A stretch of 35,699 nucleotides of DNA, from positions 62,001 to 97,699 of the forward strand of contig NZ_LSUQ01000008.1 of NCBI RefSeq assembly GCF_001642725.1, given 5' to 3'. Positions 3,001 to 35,699 of this stretch are shown here, in pieces. The position numbers are program-made. This DNA is from Ferroacidibacillus organovorans (GTDB taxonomy: Bacteria > Bacillota > Bacilli > Alicyclobacillales > SLC66). The stretch's first letter is position 1. The number at the start of each line of letters is the position of its first letter.

Positions 3001-6000
3001 TATTCTTTACAGATGGTTCTTCAACGTACTGTACCCACGTATCTCCATACGGTTTAACCCGTATGTTTATTGTTTTCACCGCATGAACAAAATGAACGAT
3101 ACTTTCCTCCAGAATATCCAGGCGAATTTCTTCGTTCCCCATAGAGGTTCCCGTTAAATTGTAGATTGGAGAAGATGGATTCAATAACTGCATCGTTAAT
3201 ACGCCAGCTTGTGAACTGTTCAGTTGCTCGTACTCGACCTCTTCTGTAAGATGTTGTTTCATAAACTCCCTCCTCGTATAGTCAATTACTCCGACGCTCC
3301 CATAATTGGAACACCTGCATTTCGAAGAGTACCCCGCAAGTACAGGAGTGATCCGCCTATTACTATAATGCCCATGACAGAAAAGACAATCGTTAGATTC
3401 AGATTAATCATAAGCCATCCGAATATCAGCATTCCCAACGGTTGAGATAGAGTAGATGCCGCACCTAACGCACCAAACACCCTCCCTTGGACGTCTGCGG
3501 GAGTAACTCGTAGTGCAACGGTATTTGTAGTTGCGTTCAGAATAGCAACAAATAGACCACTGCGCTGCATCGACAACTTTTTACTTTCCGATACACGTAC
3601 GAAGAATAGACTCACCGATGAGACTATGTACGATAGCCCGTTGAATGCAAACATAAAGGGAGCACCAAGTAACGACAATATAGTGCCGCCCCCGAATAAT
3701 CCCGCTATACCTGCGACAGATGAACCCGATTGATTCCATGCCATAGCTTTATCCATCTGAGAGTTAGGTACAATCTTAGGCATCAATGACATTTGAGCTG
3801 GATAAAAAACCGTTCCTATTAGTTCTGCAAGCGGAATTAGAAACAATATAATCATGAAATTCCGGCTGTTTACAACATGGAATATTGTTATTGAAAACAG
3901 TGCCAAGGCGACAATGCCTCGCAGGAAATCCGCAACAATCATAGTGCGGCGTTTATTCCACCTGTCTACAAGTACACCGATGAATAAACCAGCCAAGCCC
4001 GGTAATGTTTGAACTACTCCAGTCAATGTGAGATCATATTTAGATCCTGTCAATTGTAGGACATACCACGGTAAGGCAATTAGGTAGAAGTTGTTCCCAA
4101 CCATTGAAACTATCTGGCCACTGAAGAGTATCAAGAAGTTTCTGTTACGCAATAACACCCTTCCACCTCATTTCCTTTCATAACCGGGCTCACACGTTAT
4201 TTTATGAAGTGCGGAACTGAGTATTCCTTAAAAGAGGGCGGTTTCCATTTGCTGCCTCCAGATCGATTTTACCACAATATTCACACTGGATCTAAAAAAA
4301 CGTCGAAAATGTTGGAACATTAAACTCAACACTACAGAATAGATCGCAATGGTGGGCATCGCAAAGAAAGGCAAGGGTGCCCCTTCGTATCGAACACGGT
4401 GAAAGAAGTTCCTACCTAAATCACAACTCCATTACACTCTTGATGATTCTTACCCTTTACCCCTACCGCCTATCAGTTGTACGATTTGCCGGGACAGAAT
4501 ACGTACTTGCTAAAGCGTTCTATAACGTTTGTTAGTTGTCATACCTTTGCGCTCTGATTAGCCCCGGTCATATTGAGGAGAATTCAGCTCTTACAGCAAC
4601 GGGTCTCACACCCGAACCGCACATGAGAGCTGTGTGACGACGTCCAGTTTGAATCGGGCGATACCCAAACTTATTCTGCTTCCGTCTCAAGTTCTTACCG
4701 CAGCAAACTCATAACCAACACAAAATCCTATGGTACGCCCCTATCTATTGTTGCCTGGCACCGCGTCCACGAGATTTTAAATAGAGTGTTCGCAGCCAAC
4801 TCGGGTGGCGGAAGGCTGGCAAGCGGCATTGTCAAGGCTGCCCTACGTCGGCCACCCACAATGCCGCTGGCGCTTAGTTAAAGTTCATGTGTCTCTGGAC
4901 GTGCGTGTCGCTGACAATTCTGGTGCCCTGGATGTAGGGTCAAGCAGGCTTAGCTGCATAATGTGTTCACCCTGCGCGGCACACCTTGGCTAAATTGTAT
5001 ACCTCTCGAATAGCCTCTTCGGAGGGAATCTCCTGTTCAGAGCCAGCAATCTCCGCGTGGTGCTGAATGTACGCATTCATTTCTCGTTCTGTTAACCCCC
5101 CCCCGATATGCTAACGAATCTATATTCGTTGGTCACCGCTTCCAGGTGACGAACTTTCGGCAGAGTTCGTCAGCTAGGCTGCCCGACGAGAATAAGCACC
5201 ATCGGTGCCATCCAATCTTCGCGGAAAGTCAATAAAAAGCGTATTTCCTGCAACATGGCTCCGTAACCGGTGGCTTCGTCCAAGATAATGAACGGCGTCT
5301 TCTCGTCCTGCTCGTACATGTCTAGCAGTAATTCCTAGCATTGCCGTTTCACCTCGGTTTGGTCCAGTTTTTAGGGTCAGACACCCGACATGCTGTGGCA
5401 AAGAAAAATTCCACCAGCACGCGTCAGCGCCTTTGGCACGACGCGCCCACCAAGCTTTGGTTCCTTCAGCTTCAATGTCGGATTACGCACGAGAAGATCC
5501 TCTTCTACCAACCATTTGAACTGGCTTTTGTAGCCCGCACTTTTGTACGAGACTGCTCGGTTACATATGCATGTGCTAATGCAGATGTTCCCACAAACGT
5601 TCTAACGTGATCGTATAAATCTCGACGTCGTCGATGTCTCGAATCAGTAGGTTATATTGCAACCGGTATGCCCGGATGGCATAGGGATAATACCTCCCCT
5701 GTACGCGGAGGTCAGATGCCCGTTTGACGCATTACGCAATCGCATGAAAGGTCCCCCTTCAGAGACGCAATCAATGAGAGGCTGCCCAGTACCCTTTCAC
5801 ATGAGAAACAAAGCAGCAAAGAAGAGAATCGTCGCCAACAGAACAAAGACAGCCACGGGCATACCCGATTTGGTATCCATTTGTAGCCATCGAACCTTGA
5901 ACTTTTTTACCACGGTGCTGTAGACCTTGAGCAAGAACAGAGCCAGCCACCAAATCACAAGCGTGGGCAACACGCCAAGTGCTGCCCCATAGACCATTGC

Positions 6001-33000: not shown

Positions 33001-35699
33001 CCTTGCAACAACGGCTTATTGTTTCTCCCTCTGGCGAAATGAATCATCAGGTGTTAGAGGATGCGCTTTCCGCAGAAACGCTCGTGGCAGAGTCAGTTCG
33101 AGCGTCCCTAAACGGTGAACGGCTCCAAAGCACAGACGTCGAATGGCTCCTCTGCCATCCGTTCCACCGTGCGATGCTCGGTGAATCGACGCCGCGCCTT
33201 GGCCTTGAACCCAGTTACCAAATCGCCGTCCGAGGAGAACGAGTCCTGCTTCGACCGCGTAAGTCACTGCCAATCCTCGTAGCGGGCGACACCGTGATCG
33301 AGGAACGGTTGCGTACACTGATCGTGCACCACCAAGATGACGGGGCTCGGCAGAGTTGGCAGACGTTTTTATTTCTGGTAGATGTTCCCGAAGACGTGAC
33401 TGACATTGGACAGGAGTGGCTGTACCGCCTCGATGAACTGTCTGACCCGGTGGAGTGCAGCATTCACCTGGAGATTGAAGCGCCACACACAGCGGCGGCA
33501 GGGCTTGAACGAAGCCGCAAGGCGCTCAAGGACCAGCAGCGGGAATTTGTCGAAGGCACCGGCGACCTGCCGCTCACCCTGGAATGGGCCGGGGATCGCG
33601 GACGGCTGCTTGAACACAAACTGCAGCATGGCATGCCACTCGTCCACGCAACCGTCACATTCGCCATCTTCGCACCAACCCGCGAAGAGCTCGAATCCCG
33701 CGCGACTCAATTCACTCAACTGTGCAGCACCCTACGTCTGCGCATCGTGCGTTCTCCTGGTGATCAGACACGTGGCTTTCTCGACACAATGCCTGGCACC
33801 GACATGGAGAAGAAACCATGGTCGATCCCGATGGACCCTGGTTATCTGGCAGCGGGCGTTCCGCACGGCAGTAGGGACGCTGGGGACCCGACCGGTGATT
33901 ACATTGGCCGCACACGCCAAGGCACACCTGTACTGCTTGATCTTGCAAGGCCCATGTCTCGGGAACTGAACCGAAGTGGGGCGGTCGGGATCGTGGGGAC
34001 ACTTGGCGGCGGCAAATCGGTACTCAAAAAACTTCTCTTCTACCTCGCCTACAACCGAGGTGGAAGCATTTTTTCCATTGATCCAAAAGATGAGGACGGA
34101 TGCTTCAAGGAACTGCCCGCTATCGCGAAAGGGCTCACGATCCTTCGACTCTCGGCAGGTTCGCACACACAAATCAACCCGTTTCGCTTGGCGCAAAGTG
34201 ACGAGCGAAGTCACGCCATCGCGCTCGACTATCTGAGTCTTCTACTTGACGGCCAGCGCAACGACGAGCGGGCTGACGTCCTCATGGATGCGGTGGAACG
34301 AACGTTTGCCACCTCCAAGCGGGATTTGTTCCAAGTCATGACTGAACTCCAAAAACTAAGTACAACCGAGGGTCACGAGGCGATGCGTGTCGAGGCTAGG
34401 CGTTGTCTGACCCGGCTTCAGGGTTATCAGAAGAGTCCGTACGGACGGCTCGTCTTCGCGCGGGACAATGGCGTGAGTGCCTTGCCGGACACTCCTTTCG
34501 TGGTAGCGAGTCTGGCGGGACTTCCACTCCCAAAGCGCCTGCCTGGCGAAACGGGCAACTTCACCCCAAACGAGCGCTTTGGTGTCGGGATGATGTTCCT
34601 CATGGCGGCGCTTGGTCGTGAACGCATGTTTCATTCCGCTCCCGGTGGACTGAAGCTATTTGGCATCGATGAAGCCTGGCTTTTGCGCTCGTTCCCGGAA
34701 GGAAGGCAGTTGATTGACGAGACGGTACGCATGGGTCGCTCTTTCGGCGTCGTCCCCATTCTCGTCACGCAAAACCCTGGCGACATTGCCGAGGAGGAAC
34801 TGCGCAACAACCTCGGTTCCATCTTCTGCTTTCGCACCGAGGATCCGCGCGCCAGCCGTGACAACGCGATCCTACTGGGACTCGACCCGAATGAGGCGTC
34901 GCTGTGGCAGGAATTCCGCAGCCTGCGCTCCGGGGACTGCTTCTTCAAGGACATTGAAGGCCGTGTCAGTATGATCCACGTTGATCCGACGCCAGACGAC
35001 TTGCTGAACGTGTTCAACACCTCTGTGGATGGAGGTCAGCCATTATGAAACAACGCAAACGATGGATGAGCTGGGCTGTTATCATCGTGTTCCTCCTCTG
35101 TATCGTAGGAACCGTGATTGCCACCTCGCCCTCTGCTTTCGCTGCGACGCAGGCGCAACCGCCTTCGATGGTCAATCAGATTCTGCCGACCGAACAACAG
35201 ATCGGCGTATCCACCAATGCGACGCCGACATACCGAACCTATCCGCCGGACCGATATGCATTCGACCTCGGGTACAACCTCGTTACCTGGGAATGGGGTG
35301 GACTGAAACCGGATCTGAACGACCCGATCCCGTTTCTCGGCAACGCCATCGCCAGTTGGATTTTCATTGGTTCCGGTTTCATCACGCGCTTTGGCATCTT
35401 CCTGGCGGAACTCGGCTTTCACACCAACCTTGTCAACGACCAGTTGGCCGCCGTCACGCCGCTGCTCATCGGGCTGCGCCAGAGCCTGTTCGGGAGATTT
35501 CTCCCGTTCAGTCTCATCGCGCTTGCGTTCTGGGCCGTGAAGAAGGCGATGGTCGATAACCAGCCCACGCGGGTCTGGTCAGGGGTACTCGCCAGCGTGG
35601 CCGTTCTCGCGGGCGGGCTTTTCTTTATGGCGAACAGCGGTCCCGACATCCGGTTTCTCTCCACCACCATGGATCAACTGTCACAGGTGACGATGGGGG

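Follow-up and report, generated by a model that had tools for sequence, protein, structure and literature searches.

The DNA analysed here (the window) is a stretch of 35,699 nucleotides from contig C8 of Ferroacidibacillus organovorans, of which the part from 5.4 to 35.7 kb makes up most of an integrative conjugative element (ICE) of about 36 kb. Two operons diverge from the control region at its centre (21.8-24.7 kb): leftwards, a Tad/Flp-type pilus operon (5797-21756, minus strand) and, rightwards, a Gram-positive conjugation operon of the Tcp type (plus strand, 24.7-35.7 kb). A Pfam profile search covering 34 ORFs of the stretch confirmed the first-pass annotation, which had placed these two operons side by side.

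The leftward operon is a complete Tad-type pilus system without secretin, comprising two TadZ-like proteins, CpaB, TadA, TadB/C, a Flp-like pilin, pseudopilins, an Ig-like protein and a prepilin peptidase, all encoded on the minus strand behind genes for a Cro-like HTH protein and a RinA-like regulator. As claimed previously, Pfam matched the TadV-like A24 prepilin peptidase (5797..6339; Peptidase_A24, 30.7 bits, cut-off 26.5), the TadA/CpaF-type secretion ATPase (12207..13517; T2SSE, 43.6 bits), the CpaB/RcpC-like SAF protein (13514..14281; SAF) and a TadZ-like ParA/MinD ATPase (14278..15504; AAA_31, ParA and CbiA), while T2SSF was detected only below threshold, in the TadC-like platform protein (10461..11273; 24.3 bits, just under the 25.2 cut-off). 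In NCBIfam, the secretion ATPase matched best TIGR03819 and FlaI, and the SAF protein TIGR03177 pilus_cpaB (35.9 bits), each under cut-off. The TadB-like platform protein (11282..12217), for which Pfam gave no match, has four hydrophobic segments and is weakly similar to its TadC-like partner (24% over 260 aa). The product of 15482..16639, also unmatched in Pfam, appears to be a second TadZ-like protein: an AlphaFold model built from an 8-row alignment (pLDDT 68.5) predicts a receiver-like domain and a MinD/ParA fold, for which Foldseek returned FlhG, MinD, ParA and ParF (E 5e-5, TM 0.48-0.63 on target).

Pilins were assigned solely on motifs, the pilin-like ORFs giving no match to the Pfam Flp and TadE models. 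The 66-aa Flp-like pilin (10190..10390) does carry the reported site, GGG-MMDEY followed by a hydrophobic helix, and the arrangement GG[M/I]MDE[Y/F] plus helix is invariant in 10 of 10 close copies. It is accompanied by a 98-aa pilin-like protein (9870..10166; short charged leader then hydrophobic helix, no family match above cut-off), a 150-aa pseudopilin-like protein (9345..9797; N-terminal hydrophobic helix, nothing significant in Pfam) with relatives 30-34% identical in distant elements, and a 171-aa pseudopilin-like protein (8833..9348; N-terminal G-G then hydrophobic helix, no match in Pfam) whose gene is kept in every close copy. The 814-aa Ig-like protein (6387..8831; Pfam Big_1, Invasin_D3 and CarboxypepD_reg), which has a single hydrophobic segment at its N-terminus (residues 5-23), is a candidate adhesin or TadG-like protein.

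The same operon encodes secreted proteins. The "550-aa secreted protein" of the first-pass annotation is not a whole gene; it forms the 3' part of a frame of 668 codons (16865..18874, by translation) that encodes a signal-peptide protein and that an in-frame TAA at 18650-18652 divides into 74 aa and this ORF. Intact frames of 664-734 aa are found in G032, C73 and G001:C3, and the stop codon that the C8 copy carries in a conserved secreted-protein gene speaks against the joint reading of the element given below. The 507-aa secreted protein (18902..20425) shows a signal-peptide-like start, units repeated in its N-terminal part and a stretch weakly resembling SLH (Pfam SLH, E 0.0039, short of cut-off); its gene was not found in the G056a and G050a regions.

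The regulators at the head of the pilus operon are a 154-aa RinA-like protein (20857..21321, minus; NCBIfam TIGR01636 phage_rinA, 22.6 bits, under the 31.9 cut-off), present in every close copy, and the small HTH_3 (Cro-like) product of the first gene (21469..21756, minus; 50.1 bits). A promoter-like site (21804-21775, minus strand) lies at the operon start, divergent from the gene of an XRE-type repressor-like protein (21813..22493, plus; Pfam HTH_3 in two stretches, 89.4 bits). There follow, all on the minus strand, a stand-alone OmpR/PhoB-type winged-helix protein of 134 aa without receiver domain (22439..22840; Pfam Trans_reg_C, 57.8 bits), whose ATG at 22840 is preceded by a G-rich ribosome site, a c-di-GMP-I riboswitch aptamer (22909..23004; RF01051, 69.3 bits, gathering score 35; RF03167, 63 bits), and a class I SAM methyltransferase of 532 aa with an uncharacterised N-terminal half (23031..24629; Pfam Methyltransf_25/_31/_11). 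These three features form one block, which is inverted in G001:C3 and C73.

The riboswitch had been correctly identified, but its proposed function, to set pilus expression from a position in front of the operon, had to be revised. The gene downstream of the aptamer is that of the winged-helix regulator, and the operon does not stand behind the riboswitch because the plus-strand XRE gene intervenes between this regulator gene and the operon. Nor is the riboswitch peculiar to the C8 copy, as had been thought: it occupies the same place in seven other element copies and is present in 8 of 8 clade-A copies scanned, which makes it a family trait. The alleged lack of a counterpart of its gene in the C73 copy is a contig-end artefact, since C73 ends within the methyltransferase gene; the equivalent copy, G001:C3, holds all three features of the block. 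In the riboswitch leader a terminator-like site was looked for and not found, and the full leader folds no better than shuffles (z 0.17). The host genome contains 10 GGDEF matches and 8 c-di-GMP-I riboswitches. In another Gram-positive bacterium, Clostridioides difficile, type IV pili are linked to a c-di-GMP riboswitch; that riboswitch is of class II and lies directly 5' of the pilin gene pilA1, whereas the aptamer of the C8 element is of class I, stands before the gene of a regulator and is part of a mobile element.

The rightward operon is a Tcp-type monoderm transfer system. It opens with an ImmA/IrrE-like M78 peptidase (24914..25339, plus, as all that follow; Peptidase_M78, 24.4 bits, cut-off 22) and continues with a Dam-type N6-adenine DNA methylase (26100..26897; MethyltransfD12, 111.8 bits; TIGR00571 over cut-off), a coupling protein of the FtsK/TrwB type (26894..29239; TrwB_AAD_bind, 33.3 bits), a Replic_Relax protein, the candidate relaxase (29263..30375; PF13814, 60.1 bits), a C5 cytosine DNA methylase (30245..31573; DNA_methylase, 206.4 bits) unmatched by tblastn in the G056a and G050a regions, a TcpE-family membrane protein (31870..32583; TcpE, 51.5 bits), a TcpF-like VirB4-type ATPase (32493..35048; AAA_10, 174.3 bits; NCBIfam TcpF, 176 bits, under cut-off) and a VirB6-like membrane protein (35045..35698), of which the contig end leaves the first 218 codons; a lytic transglycosylase completes the set. 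Pfam thereby bore out the conjugation module described earlier, from the two methylases to the VirB4 protein. The remaining part of the element lies on contig C69, which carries the C-terminus of the VirB6-like protein (residues 180-473 at C69:11368-10490), the SLT hydrolase and a terminal large serine recombinase, as does G001:C35. A homologue of the VirB6-like protein on C46 matches the CD3337/EF1877 mobilome membrane protein family.

Element copies resemble one another between the stop codon of the recombinase gene and a point about 580 nt beyond the peptidase gene (622-37030 in G056a), and the similarity of G001:C35 to the stretch breaks off at 5422. Downstream of the peptidase gene, alignment with C83, C61 and G001:C35 revealed a tyrosine-recombinase gene remnant (5423..5762, minus), whose G001:C35 counterpart is a 225-aa ORF matching Phage_integrase and Phage_int_SAM_1; this remnant would be about the outer boundary of similarity among copies.

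The second copy proposed for the same assembly was recovered in part. By tblastn, C73 has matches to 11 ORFs and C63 to 8, with gene order kept and 43-83% identity, and there are further matches for three ORFs at the start of C28 and one on C46; its ATPase, platform and pilin genes, however, are absent throughout the assembly by the same search. The supposed join of C73 to C63 is not supported; a type I restriction system comes next in the equivalent copy G001:C3, where no transfer genes occur up to the contig end.

The contiguous pilus and transfer layout recurs in five further genomes (G001:C35, G032:C17, G046:C21, G050a and G056a); these five syntenic elements are complete, show 45-97% protein identity and all come from the order holding Alicyclobacillus. 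A search of 64 genomes of the order yielded 16 pairs of TadA and VirB4 within 60 kb of each other on one contig; in the six genomes with at most four contigs, 10 of 13 TadA places are paired in this way. Two lineages are much more remote (VirB4 26-31% identical); in these, the pilus and transfer genes are intermingled on a single strand, and the genes for coupling protein and relaxase stand amid those of the pilus. The order in G022:C1, all on one strand, is VirB4, VirB6-like, TcpE, SLT, HD_5, T2SSF, three small ORFs, coupling protein, Replic_Relax, Ig-like protein, EAL, TadZ, CpaB-like, T2SSE and T2SSF; it recurs in G026 and G036 (tblastn), and plasmid pAACI02 (NC_013207) likewise holds a one-stranded array. 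TadA and VirB4 trees agree on three deep clades (clade support 99-100) and assign 12 of 12 elements to them alike. Within clade A they conflict, C8 joining G001:C35 for TadA versus G046 for VirB4, and the pilus and transfer modules therefore recombine. In PLSDB, 358 plasmids have a VirB4 relative and 20 a TadA relative (E 1e-15); NC_013207 is the only overlap, so that the pairing is not a general habit among Gram-positive plasmids.

Collectively, these data support that the pilus genes probably belong to the conjugative element and are not chance neighbours, and they show that the predicted Tad pilus system is a regular component of this element family and also of two related lineages that branch more deeply. 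Of the earlier reading of the pilus as part of the ICE transfer machinery, membership of the element thus stands, on syntenic genomes, interleaved lineages and trees, while its mating role is only inferred. The association on one element, retained in very distant relatives, is noteworthy because, to our knowledge, pili are thought to be absent from Gram-positive conjugation systems.

The Clostridium perfringens pCW3 Tcp system shares with the C8 element the TcpE family, a TcpF-like VirB4, an FtsK-type coupling protein and a peptidoglycan hydrolase; pCW3 is not known to carry pilus genes, and in the C8 element, where the candidate relaxase is Replic_Relax, neither TcpC nor TcpM could be matched with a recognisable equivalent. 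The C8 VirB4 is only about 25% identical to its plasmid relatives. Comparable pilus and transfer gene pairings have already been published for Sulfobacillus and Cutibacterium plasmids. In the Gram-positive acidophile Sulfobacillus thermotolerans (pL15, pY0017 and the Kr1 integrated region), the conjugation backbone is described, in the portion of the report available, as combining T4SS and "T2SS" homologues: MinD-like, CpaF/TadA, TadB/C, relaxase, coupling protein, VirB4 and transglycosylase; that portion makes no mention of a Flp pilin, a peptidase, a riboswitch or a serine recombinase (PMC6803676). The pY0017 annotation places these homologues on one strand; this plasmid is of a different lineage, with a MOBP relaxase and a CD1115-type VirD4, and was not among the PLSDB TadA matches at E 1e-15. 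In Cutibacterium acnes, an actinobacterial host with linear plasmids whose likeness to the C8 element is by description, a tad locus adjoins FtsK-like, VirB4 and TcpC-like genes on p15.1.R1, pIMPLE-HL096PA1 and pTP-CU411, and one such plasmid is transferable (PMC5696575, PMC9119108).

We propose a joint reading, probable if only just, of an ICE of about 36 kb with a Tad pilus as a standing module, in which the pilus would serve transfer and c-di-GMP would act as an input. By analogy, its function would most likely be donor-recipient contact: the pilus would find and hold recipient cells, extending and binding via minor pilins or the Ig-like protein, and its retraction would draw cells into the contact required by the T4SS. 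Host c-di-GMP may act through the riboswitch on translation of the winged-helix regulator in the control region; the family-wide riboswitch, the GGDEF matches and further c-di-GMP-I riboswitches of the host, and the EAL and HD_5 genes inside the distant elements favour such an input. A parallel is the thin pilus of IncI plasmids (R64, TP114), which brings mating partners together, bears tip adhesins and is, as here, a type IV pilus separate from the T4SS on a conjugative element (PMC12857230). IncI plasmids have a Gram-negative host, a type IVb pilus and a Dot/Icm-like T4SS, in contrast to the monoderm host, predicted secretin-less Tad pilus and predicted Tcp-type T4SS of the C8 element. The same account describes PAPI-1 of Pseudomonas aeruginosa, an integrated element that depends on its own type IV pilus for transfer (PMC12857230); its host is Gram-negative and the C8 element has more T4SS parts.

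The pilus is not always found with transfer genes. G052 holds a pilus-only cluster, from the 507-aa gene through the peptidase (35-68% identity), without transfer genes and regulators and amid ordinary genes and IS elements; VirB4 was searched for in this genome and not found. Similar ATPases occur in G051 and G054, for which VirB4 gave no match, and in G050b pilus and regulators are retained, the transfer side being reduced to a 41-aa coupling-protein fragment. The G052 cluster and G050b indicate that the pilus can persist without transfer genes, and both speak against an obligatory transfer role.

The pilus could alternatively be cargo, an adhesion or biofilm organelle aiding surface colonisation by the host with no part in DNA transfer. 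Elsewhere, the tad "colonisation island" serves surface colonisation, and c-di-GMP control, to which the riboswitch here and the internal EAL and HD_5 genes of the distant elements point, is typical of adhesion and biofilm traits. Beside the pilus-only clusters and the G050 copy, the frequent horizontal movement of Tad systems (PMC6668835) and the interpretation of the C. acnes tad locus as an adhesion factor (PMC5696575, PMC9119108) favour this alternative. Cargo is usually variable, whereas the pilus set is retained through three deep clades matching those of VirB4, two of which have coupling protein and relaxase genes amid the pilus genes on one strand, and in clade A the operon is tied to the element's own XRE/Cro-like/RinA-like control region. 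We regard cargo as unlikely, though the likeliest of the alternatives to a pilus that serves transfer.

It is quite improbable that the Tad apparatus goes beyond a contact device and forms an indispensable structural component of a hybrid machine for DNA translocation. The one-strand interleaved arrays would fit, as would the transfer genes, in which neither a VirB8/TcpC-like protein nor an LPXTG-type adhesin could be recognised, and PAPI-1 has been discussed as such a VirB4/VirD4 and pilus hybrid (PMC12857230). Against it, VirB4, VirB6-like protein, TcpE, hydrolase and coupling protein make up most of the usual monoderm T4SS, and missing parts might hide in small unnamed ORFs. Finally, a pilus for DNA uptake in a recipient role, for which the tad genes of Gram-positive Micrococcus luteus, active in transformation, give a precedent (cited in PMC5696575), or for export of the two or three signal-peptide proteins of the operon, is very improbable, as no competence genes were seen in the element with Pfam and NCBIfam and as the Flp-like pilin and the pseudopilins are its best-conserved small genes, which fits a filament.

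The window holds most of an integrative conjugative element, in which a pilus operon on the minus strand and a transfer operon on the plus strand diverge from a control region, where a c-di-GMP aptamer precedes a regulator gene. The pilus genes form a single co-directional array, from 21756 down to 5797. At its head, the gene of a small HTH_3 protein and a 75-aa ORF are followed by a gene whose 154-aa product weakly matches the RinA family. Then come the gene of a 507-aa signal-peptide protein, the 668-codon frame of a second signal-peptide protein and a gene for a protein of 385-426 aa without Pfam match. 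The core genes come next, encoding in order a ParA/MinD-type (TadZ-like) protein, a SAF (CpaB-like) protein, a T2SSE ATPase and two polytopic membrane proteins, and the tail consists of four small ORFs whose products have a hydrophobic helix at the N-terminus, followed by the genes of an 814-aa protein bearing Ig-like domains and of a prepilin peptidase of family A24.

These assignments were made by searching 34 ORFs of the window against Pfam, and 32 of them plus six from contig C46 of the same genome against NCBIfam. The TadA/CpaF-type ATPase matches T2SSE at 43.6 bits (cut-off 24.9) and the peptidase, of 180 aa and without a methyltransferase or other domain, matches Peptidase_A24 at 30.7 bits (cut-off 26.5), while TadZ and CpaB/RcpC are represented by AAA_31, ParA and SAF matches. 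The first platform protein reaches 24.3 bits with T2SSF, slightly under the cut-off of 25.2; the second, without Pfam match, has four hydrophobic segments and 24% identity to the first. As the first-pass annotation had pointed out, a 66-aa ORF (10190-10390) carries a candidate Flp-type processing site, GGG-MMDEY followed by a hydrophobic helix, and the core GG[M/I]MDE[Y/F] with its helix is unchanged in 10 of 10 close copies. None of the small pilin-like ORFs matches the Pfam Flp or TadE models even at E 5, so that motif, size and location are what the pilin names are based on; the ORFs of 150 and 171 aa resemble TadE/TadF pseudopilins in N-terminal helix and position only. The operon is predicted to have two TadZ-like genes, since the 426-aa protein, when modelled (8-row alignment, pLDDT 68.5, disordered linker), shows the TadZ build of a receiver-like N-terminal domain and a C-terminal fold close to FlhG, MinD, ParA and ParF (Foldseek, E 5e-5). 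It has no BLASTP similarity to the 408-aa TadZ-like protein (E 0.27), and the two are alike by fold only.

The secreted protein of 550 aa described earlier turned out to be a piece of the 668-codon frame, which is interrupted by an in-frame TAA at 18650-18652 (minus strand): a 74-aa piece with the signal peptide stands before the stop, the "550-aa" ORF after it. A sequencing run that is possibly the source of this DNA shows no alternative letter at these positions. The matching frame of G001:C35, in a genome of the same genus, also contains one TAA, and the copies on C73 of the same genome, on G001:C3 and in the related genome G032 are unbroken (664-734 aa). A search of the ESM Atlas with the C-terminal part of this 550-aa ORF yielded nothing usable.

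The control region consists of an XRE gene with two HTH_3 domains (21813-22493, plus strand) and, on the minus strand, of a 532-aa SAM methyltransferase gene (23031-24629) whose N-terminal 260 residues are without family match, a 96-nt c-di-GMP-I aptamer (22909-23004) reached 27 nt after the end of that gene, and a stand-alone winged-helix gene (22439-22840, ATG at 22840). The product of the latter had been called an OmpR-type regulator; its winged helix was found (Trans_reg_C at residues 41-112 of a 141-aa ORF) and a receiver domain was not, Pfam giving no Response_reg match. Nor does the pilus operon lie directly behind the riboswitch, as had been proposed: the aptamer precedes the regulator gene, and the plus-strand XRE gene intervenes before the operon.

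The aptamer scores 69.3 bits with RF01051 (gathering score 35) and 63 bits with RF03167, the GGC variant, which comes out ahead by E-value. This variant label was rejected and the aptamer treated as an ordinary c-di-GMP-I riboswitch because the defining G of the RF03167 consensus, after GACGC, is replaced by A in the window and in all six other aligned copies; the position is read by the Vc2 structure. The window has G, A and C where G20, A47 and C92 align, the ligand-contacting nucleotides in Vc2 numbering. In the aptamer of G032:C17 (locus L009, 12835-12930), A stands at the place of G20, where other copies have G. This G contacts one guanine of c-di-GMP. In Geobacter, A at the G20 place goes with 3'3'-cGAMP sensing.

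Among close copies of the element sharing the layout of the window (clade A), eight were scanned (the window, G032, L020/G046, G001:C35, G001:C3, G056a, G056b and G050a, leaving out G050b), and all eight have the aptamer, every time between the methyltransferase and the winged-helix gene. Judged from the window and from L014 4404-6446 and L015 73-1161, the three features behave as one block, which in G001:C3 runs the other way round with respect to the pilus operon. No c-di-GMP-I aptamer was found in the related genome G052 or in 140 kb of more distant elements, which carry EAL and HD_5 genes in its place. The host genome has 10 GGDEF matches and 8 c-di-GMP-I aptamers. One of these (C40:12076-12171, 66.4 bits) was considered as the riboswitch of a second copy of the element and rejected, as it precedes an unrelated 284-aa signal-peptide protein; a 538-aa serine recombinase lies about 2 kb further on.

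How the aptamer would act was approached by folding. The leader as a whole folds no better than shuffled sequences (z 0.17), and a scan revealed no terminator-like site. In partition-function folds of the downstream part, the G-rich ribosome site pairs with a C-tract at 0.80-1.00 in 8/8 copies; in full-leader folds, this site is less paired in three of the eight, because the C-tract turns to the aptamer. These folds give a weak hint of what would fit a translational OFF switch of the winged-helix gene. By eye, one strand of the aptamer and the C-tract downstream of it show two changes that may be compensatory, in the L020 copy and in G001:C3. Right before the first gene of the pilus operon lies a promoter-like site, TTGTCA-18-TATGAT (21804-21775, minus strand), which is weak because the scan returned 3 such sites against 3.5 expected.

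The transfer operon runs on the plus strand from about 24.7 kb as far as the end of the contig. It encodes a peptidase of family M78 (ImmA-like), a Dam-type methylase, a TrwB/FtsK-type coupling protein and Replic_Relax, then a C5 methylase, TcpE and a TcpF-like VirB4; of a last gene, for a membrane protein, the first 218 codons are present. The cut gene continues on C69: residues 1-177 of its C46 homologue correspond to C8:97168-97698 (C8 being the contig of the window) and residues 180-473 to C69:11368-10490. Beyond it, C69 encodes an SLT transglycosylase and, past some small ORFs, a large serine recombinase (C69:7419-5875), an order repeated in G001:C35. Since the C46 homologue belongs to the CD3337/EF1877 family of mobilome membrane proteins (NCBIfam), the cut gene can be read as a putative VirB6 equivalent. 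Parts of a Tcp-type (monoderm) T4SS are present in TcpE, the TcpF-like VirB4, the FtsK-type coupling protein, the VirB6-like protein and a hydrolase; family searches with the small ORFs in the window, on C46 and in G001:C35 gave no VirB8-like TcpC.

The element is classed as integrative and conjugative by the serine recombinase (C69 and G001:C35), Replic_Relax, the TrwB-type protein, AAA_10 and ends that are shared between copies. Similarity between the copies of different genomes extends from the stop codon of the recombinase to about 580 nt beyond the peptidase; between G056a (622-37030) and G001:C35 (13877-50615), the shared stretch is about 36.4 kb. The similarity of the window to G001:C35 stops at 5422, and 5423-5762 is a remnant of a tyrosine-recombinase gene. 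The region to the left (1-5400) has a lower G+C content (0.43-0.51) and looks like a decayed region, with a truncated DDE transposase, a DsbD-type protein, a 235-aa condensation-domain fragment and a 290-aa MFS fragment. At the recombinase side, the end adjoins a PDDEXK_2 (Rpn-like) gene in both G001:C35 (13831-13783) and C69 (~5875-5819). Because the flanks of G056a and G056c resemble each other (an alignment made for G056 only), a repeated target for insertion is suggested. No empty site was found when flanks were aligned, and the several copies per genome speak only indirectly for mobility.

A second element likely exists in the same genome, in pieces that may belong together. It had been placed on C73 and C63. 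By tblastn, C73 has matches to 11 ORFs, from methyltransferase to SAF, at 46-69% identity, and C63 to 8, from M78 to VirB4, at 43-83%; its ATPase, platform and pilin genes were not found by tblastn in the assembly, where the sole other T2SSE match is a 27%-identical gene on C19. Three further ORFs, the 171-aa ORF, the Ig-like protein and the peptidase, match at the start of C28, and the VirB6-like gene is on C46, which continues with SLT and then a serine recombinase. The regulator was thought to lack a counterpart in this copy, which proved to be an effect of the contig end: C73 breaks off within the methyltransferase gene, whose orientation to the pilus genes is reversed. In the equivalent copy, G001:C3, the inverted block leads to an ORF of 422 aa and then to a type I restriction system, and the contig ends without a transfer gene.

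Other loci of the genome resemble parts of the element. C56 (4582-10470) and C59 (11490-16272) have a coupling protein, 58-73% identical to that of the element, with Replic_Relax and a serine-recombinase gene and without VirB4; they look like mobilisable elements that could borrow the transfer machine of the big element. The recombinase gene of C59 may be broken, because its longest ORF is 202 aa although tblastn matches the full length. C52 (14993-17659) has Replic_Relax and a tyrosine integrase without a coupling-protein match, and C72 (8727-10229) a serine-recombinase match (67% identical). Near-identical prepilin-peptidase genes, 38-39% identical to that of the window, were seen at the contig ends C83 (506-1700) and C61 (14350-15521), each followed by a tyrosine-recombinase gene.

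Beyond this genome, the pilus system is a standing part of the clade-A family and of two deeper lineages. The named loci of the species-genome collection place the family in Alicyclobacillus. Complete contiguous clade-A elements are found in G001:C35, G032:C17, G046:C21, G050 and G056, with 45-97% protein identity. In some of them, inserted DNA of 5 to 10.6 kb separates the second TadZ-like gene from the gene of the secreted protein, one G056 copy has its transfer and pilus halves about 60 kb apart, and a further G050 copy (G050b) has regulators and pilus genes with the coupling protein only as a 41-aa fragment. A survey of 64 genomes of the order found the ATPase (E 1e-40) in 24 and VirB4 (E 1e-30) likewise in 24, with 16 pairs within 60 kb on one contig and one more at 78 kb; many of the remaining matches are on short contigs and uninformative for pairing. 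In the six genomes of four contigs or fewer, 10 of 13 ATPase places are paired with VirB4 within 60 kb. Outside the order, ATPase relatives (E 1e-35) occur in 3 genomes, the class sample comprising 401 genomes including those of the order itself.

The strongest evidence that pilus and transfer genes are linked is provided by the distant lineages, in which VirB4 and the ATPase are 26-31% and 31-38% identical to those of the window. On one strand of G022:C1, Pfam matches and ORFs line up as a sigma/LuxR-type regulator, VirB4, a 985-aa TrbL-like protein, YdjM, TcpE, two small ORFs and SLT; then an HD_5 protein, T2SSF and three small ORFs, of which two share 30-32% identity with the pseudopilin-like ORFs of the window; then a coupling protein, a 135-aa ORF, Replic_Relax, an Ig-like protein and HU; and last an EAL protein, a TadZ-like protein, a CpaB-like ORF, T2SSE and T2SSF. 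By tblastn, the same gene order recurs in G026 (two places) and G036 (three places). In the third lineage, plasmid pAACI02 (NC_013207) and G002:C6, VirB4 and a VirB6-sized gene are followed by TadZ/SAF/ATPase sets; the annotation of pAACI02, where everything lies on a single strand, adds an EAL protein and a peptidase of family A24. A scan for the motif G-x(3,4)-E-[YF] returned no Flp-like ORF in the distant elements. The candidate c-di-GMP phosphodiesterases (HD_5, EAL) within these arrays are at L050 11640-12692, L051 5493-6110 and NC_013207 77084-77767.

Quick trees by maximum likelihood (LG+G4, SH-aLRT), one of 17 ATPases and one of 12 VirB4s, place all 12 elements in the same three clades with both proteins (clade support 99-100). 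As three clades leave no deep branching to disagree, this agreement shows shared membership, not a congruent order of events. Within clade A, the two trees disagree, which points to a probable exchange of modules between close relatives.

Other genomes show one part without the other. G052, whose ATPase is sister to clade A, has a cluster from the 507-aa gene to the peptidase (35-68% identity) without transfer genes, regulators or riboswitch, between ordinary-looking genes and IS66/ISL3 elements, and no VirB4 was found in it at E 1e-30. G051 and G054 have similar ATPases and no VirB4 match; conversely, nine genomes (G008, G013, G016, G017, G047, G048, G063 and two others) have VirB4 relatives without an ATPase match at threshold. 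The pilus can hence stand alone, and related T4SSs can be without it.

The closest working models for such a pilus are the IncI thin pilus and PAPI-1, and by analogy with them we slightly favour a device for recipient contact, tuned by c-di-GMP. The pilus operon, with Cro-like and RinA-like genes at its head opposite the XRE repressor, would be switched with the element's own circuit; the filament would find and hold recipients, its retraction would bring them to the T4SS of the donor, and c-di-GMP would tune their capture through the winged-helix protein. That the pilus is plain adhesion cargo is possible, if rather doubtful: the G052 cluster without transfer genes speaks for it, and against it stands the linkage kept in lineages as remote as pAACI02. 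A stronger form of the mating model, to be held equally tentatively, makes the Tad pilus a required part of the transfer machine and a Gram-positive counterpart of PAPI-1, in which filament and VirB4/coupling-protein core would be one apparatus and host c-di-GMP would decide the donor state. The Tad apparatus as an obligatory part of a hybrid translocation machine is a quite unlikely reading, although the mixed arrays of G022:C1 speak for it. A pilus for uptake or secretion is very improbable.

Tad-like and transfer genes on Gram-positive replicons have already been noted in print. For Sulfobacillus, the conjugation system of plasmids pL15 and pY0017, and of a region integrated in the chromosome, is described as having homologues of both T4SS and "T2SS" (PMC6803676), a pairing that the annotation of pY0017 supports. 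In linear plasmids of Cutibacterium acnes, a tad locus adjoins FtsK-like, VirB4 and TcpC-like genes (PMC5696575), and one such plasmid is described as transferable (PMC9119108). In PLSDB, 358 plasmids have a VirB4 relative (E 1e-20) and 20 a TadA relative (E 1e-15), with pAACI02 alone in both sets. A literature search, covering part of the papers, found no description of the present family; new are the form integrated by a serine recombinase, how deep and interleaved the linkage is, and the module of riboswitch and regulator. Related Gram-positive elements, integrated and plasmid-borne, keep a complete type IV (Tad) pilus system beside their transfer genes, a pairing that persists down to 26-31% VirB4 identity and in some lineages mixes both gene sets in one array. 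If the pilus serves mating, it would be a third Gram-positive way to make mating pairs, and pilus-assisted conjugation would have arisen on both sides of the Gram divide. The behaviour of the element would also be tied to the c-di-GMP signal of its host, one lineage using a riboswitch and others EAL or HD-type genes. With Alicyclobacillus acidocaldarius DSM 446 (pAACI02), a cultured type strain with such elements makes the question testable. Finally, a relative of the element appears to live in a mine-tailings habitat, because two sequencing runs from there (X5 and X6, labelled RNA-Seq and probably DNA) hold contigs about 91% identical to 13667-25300 of the window.
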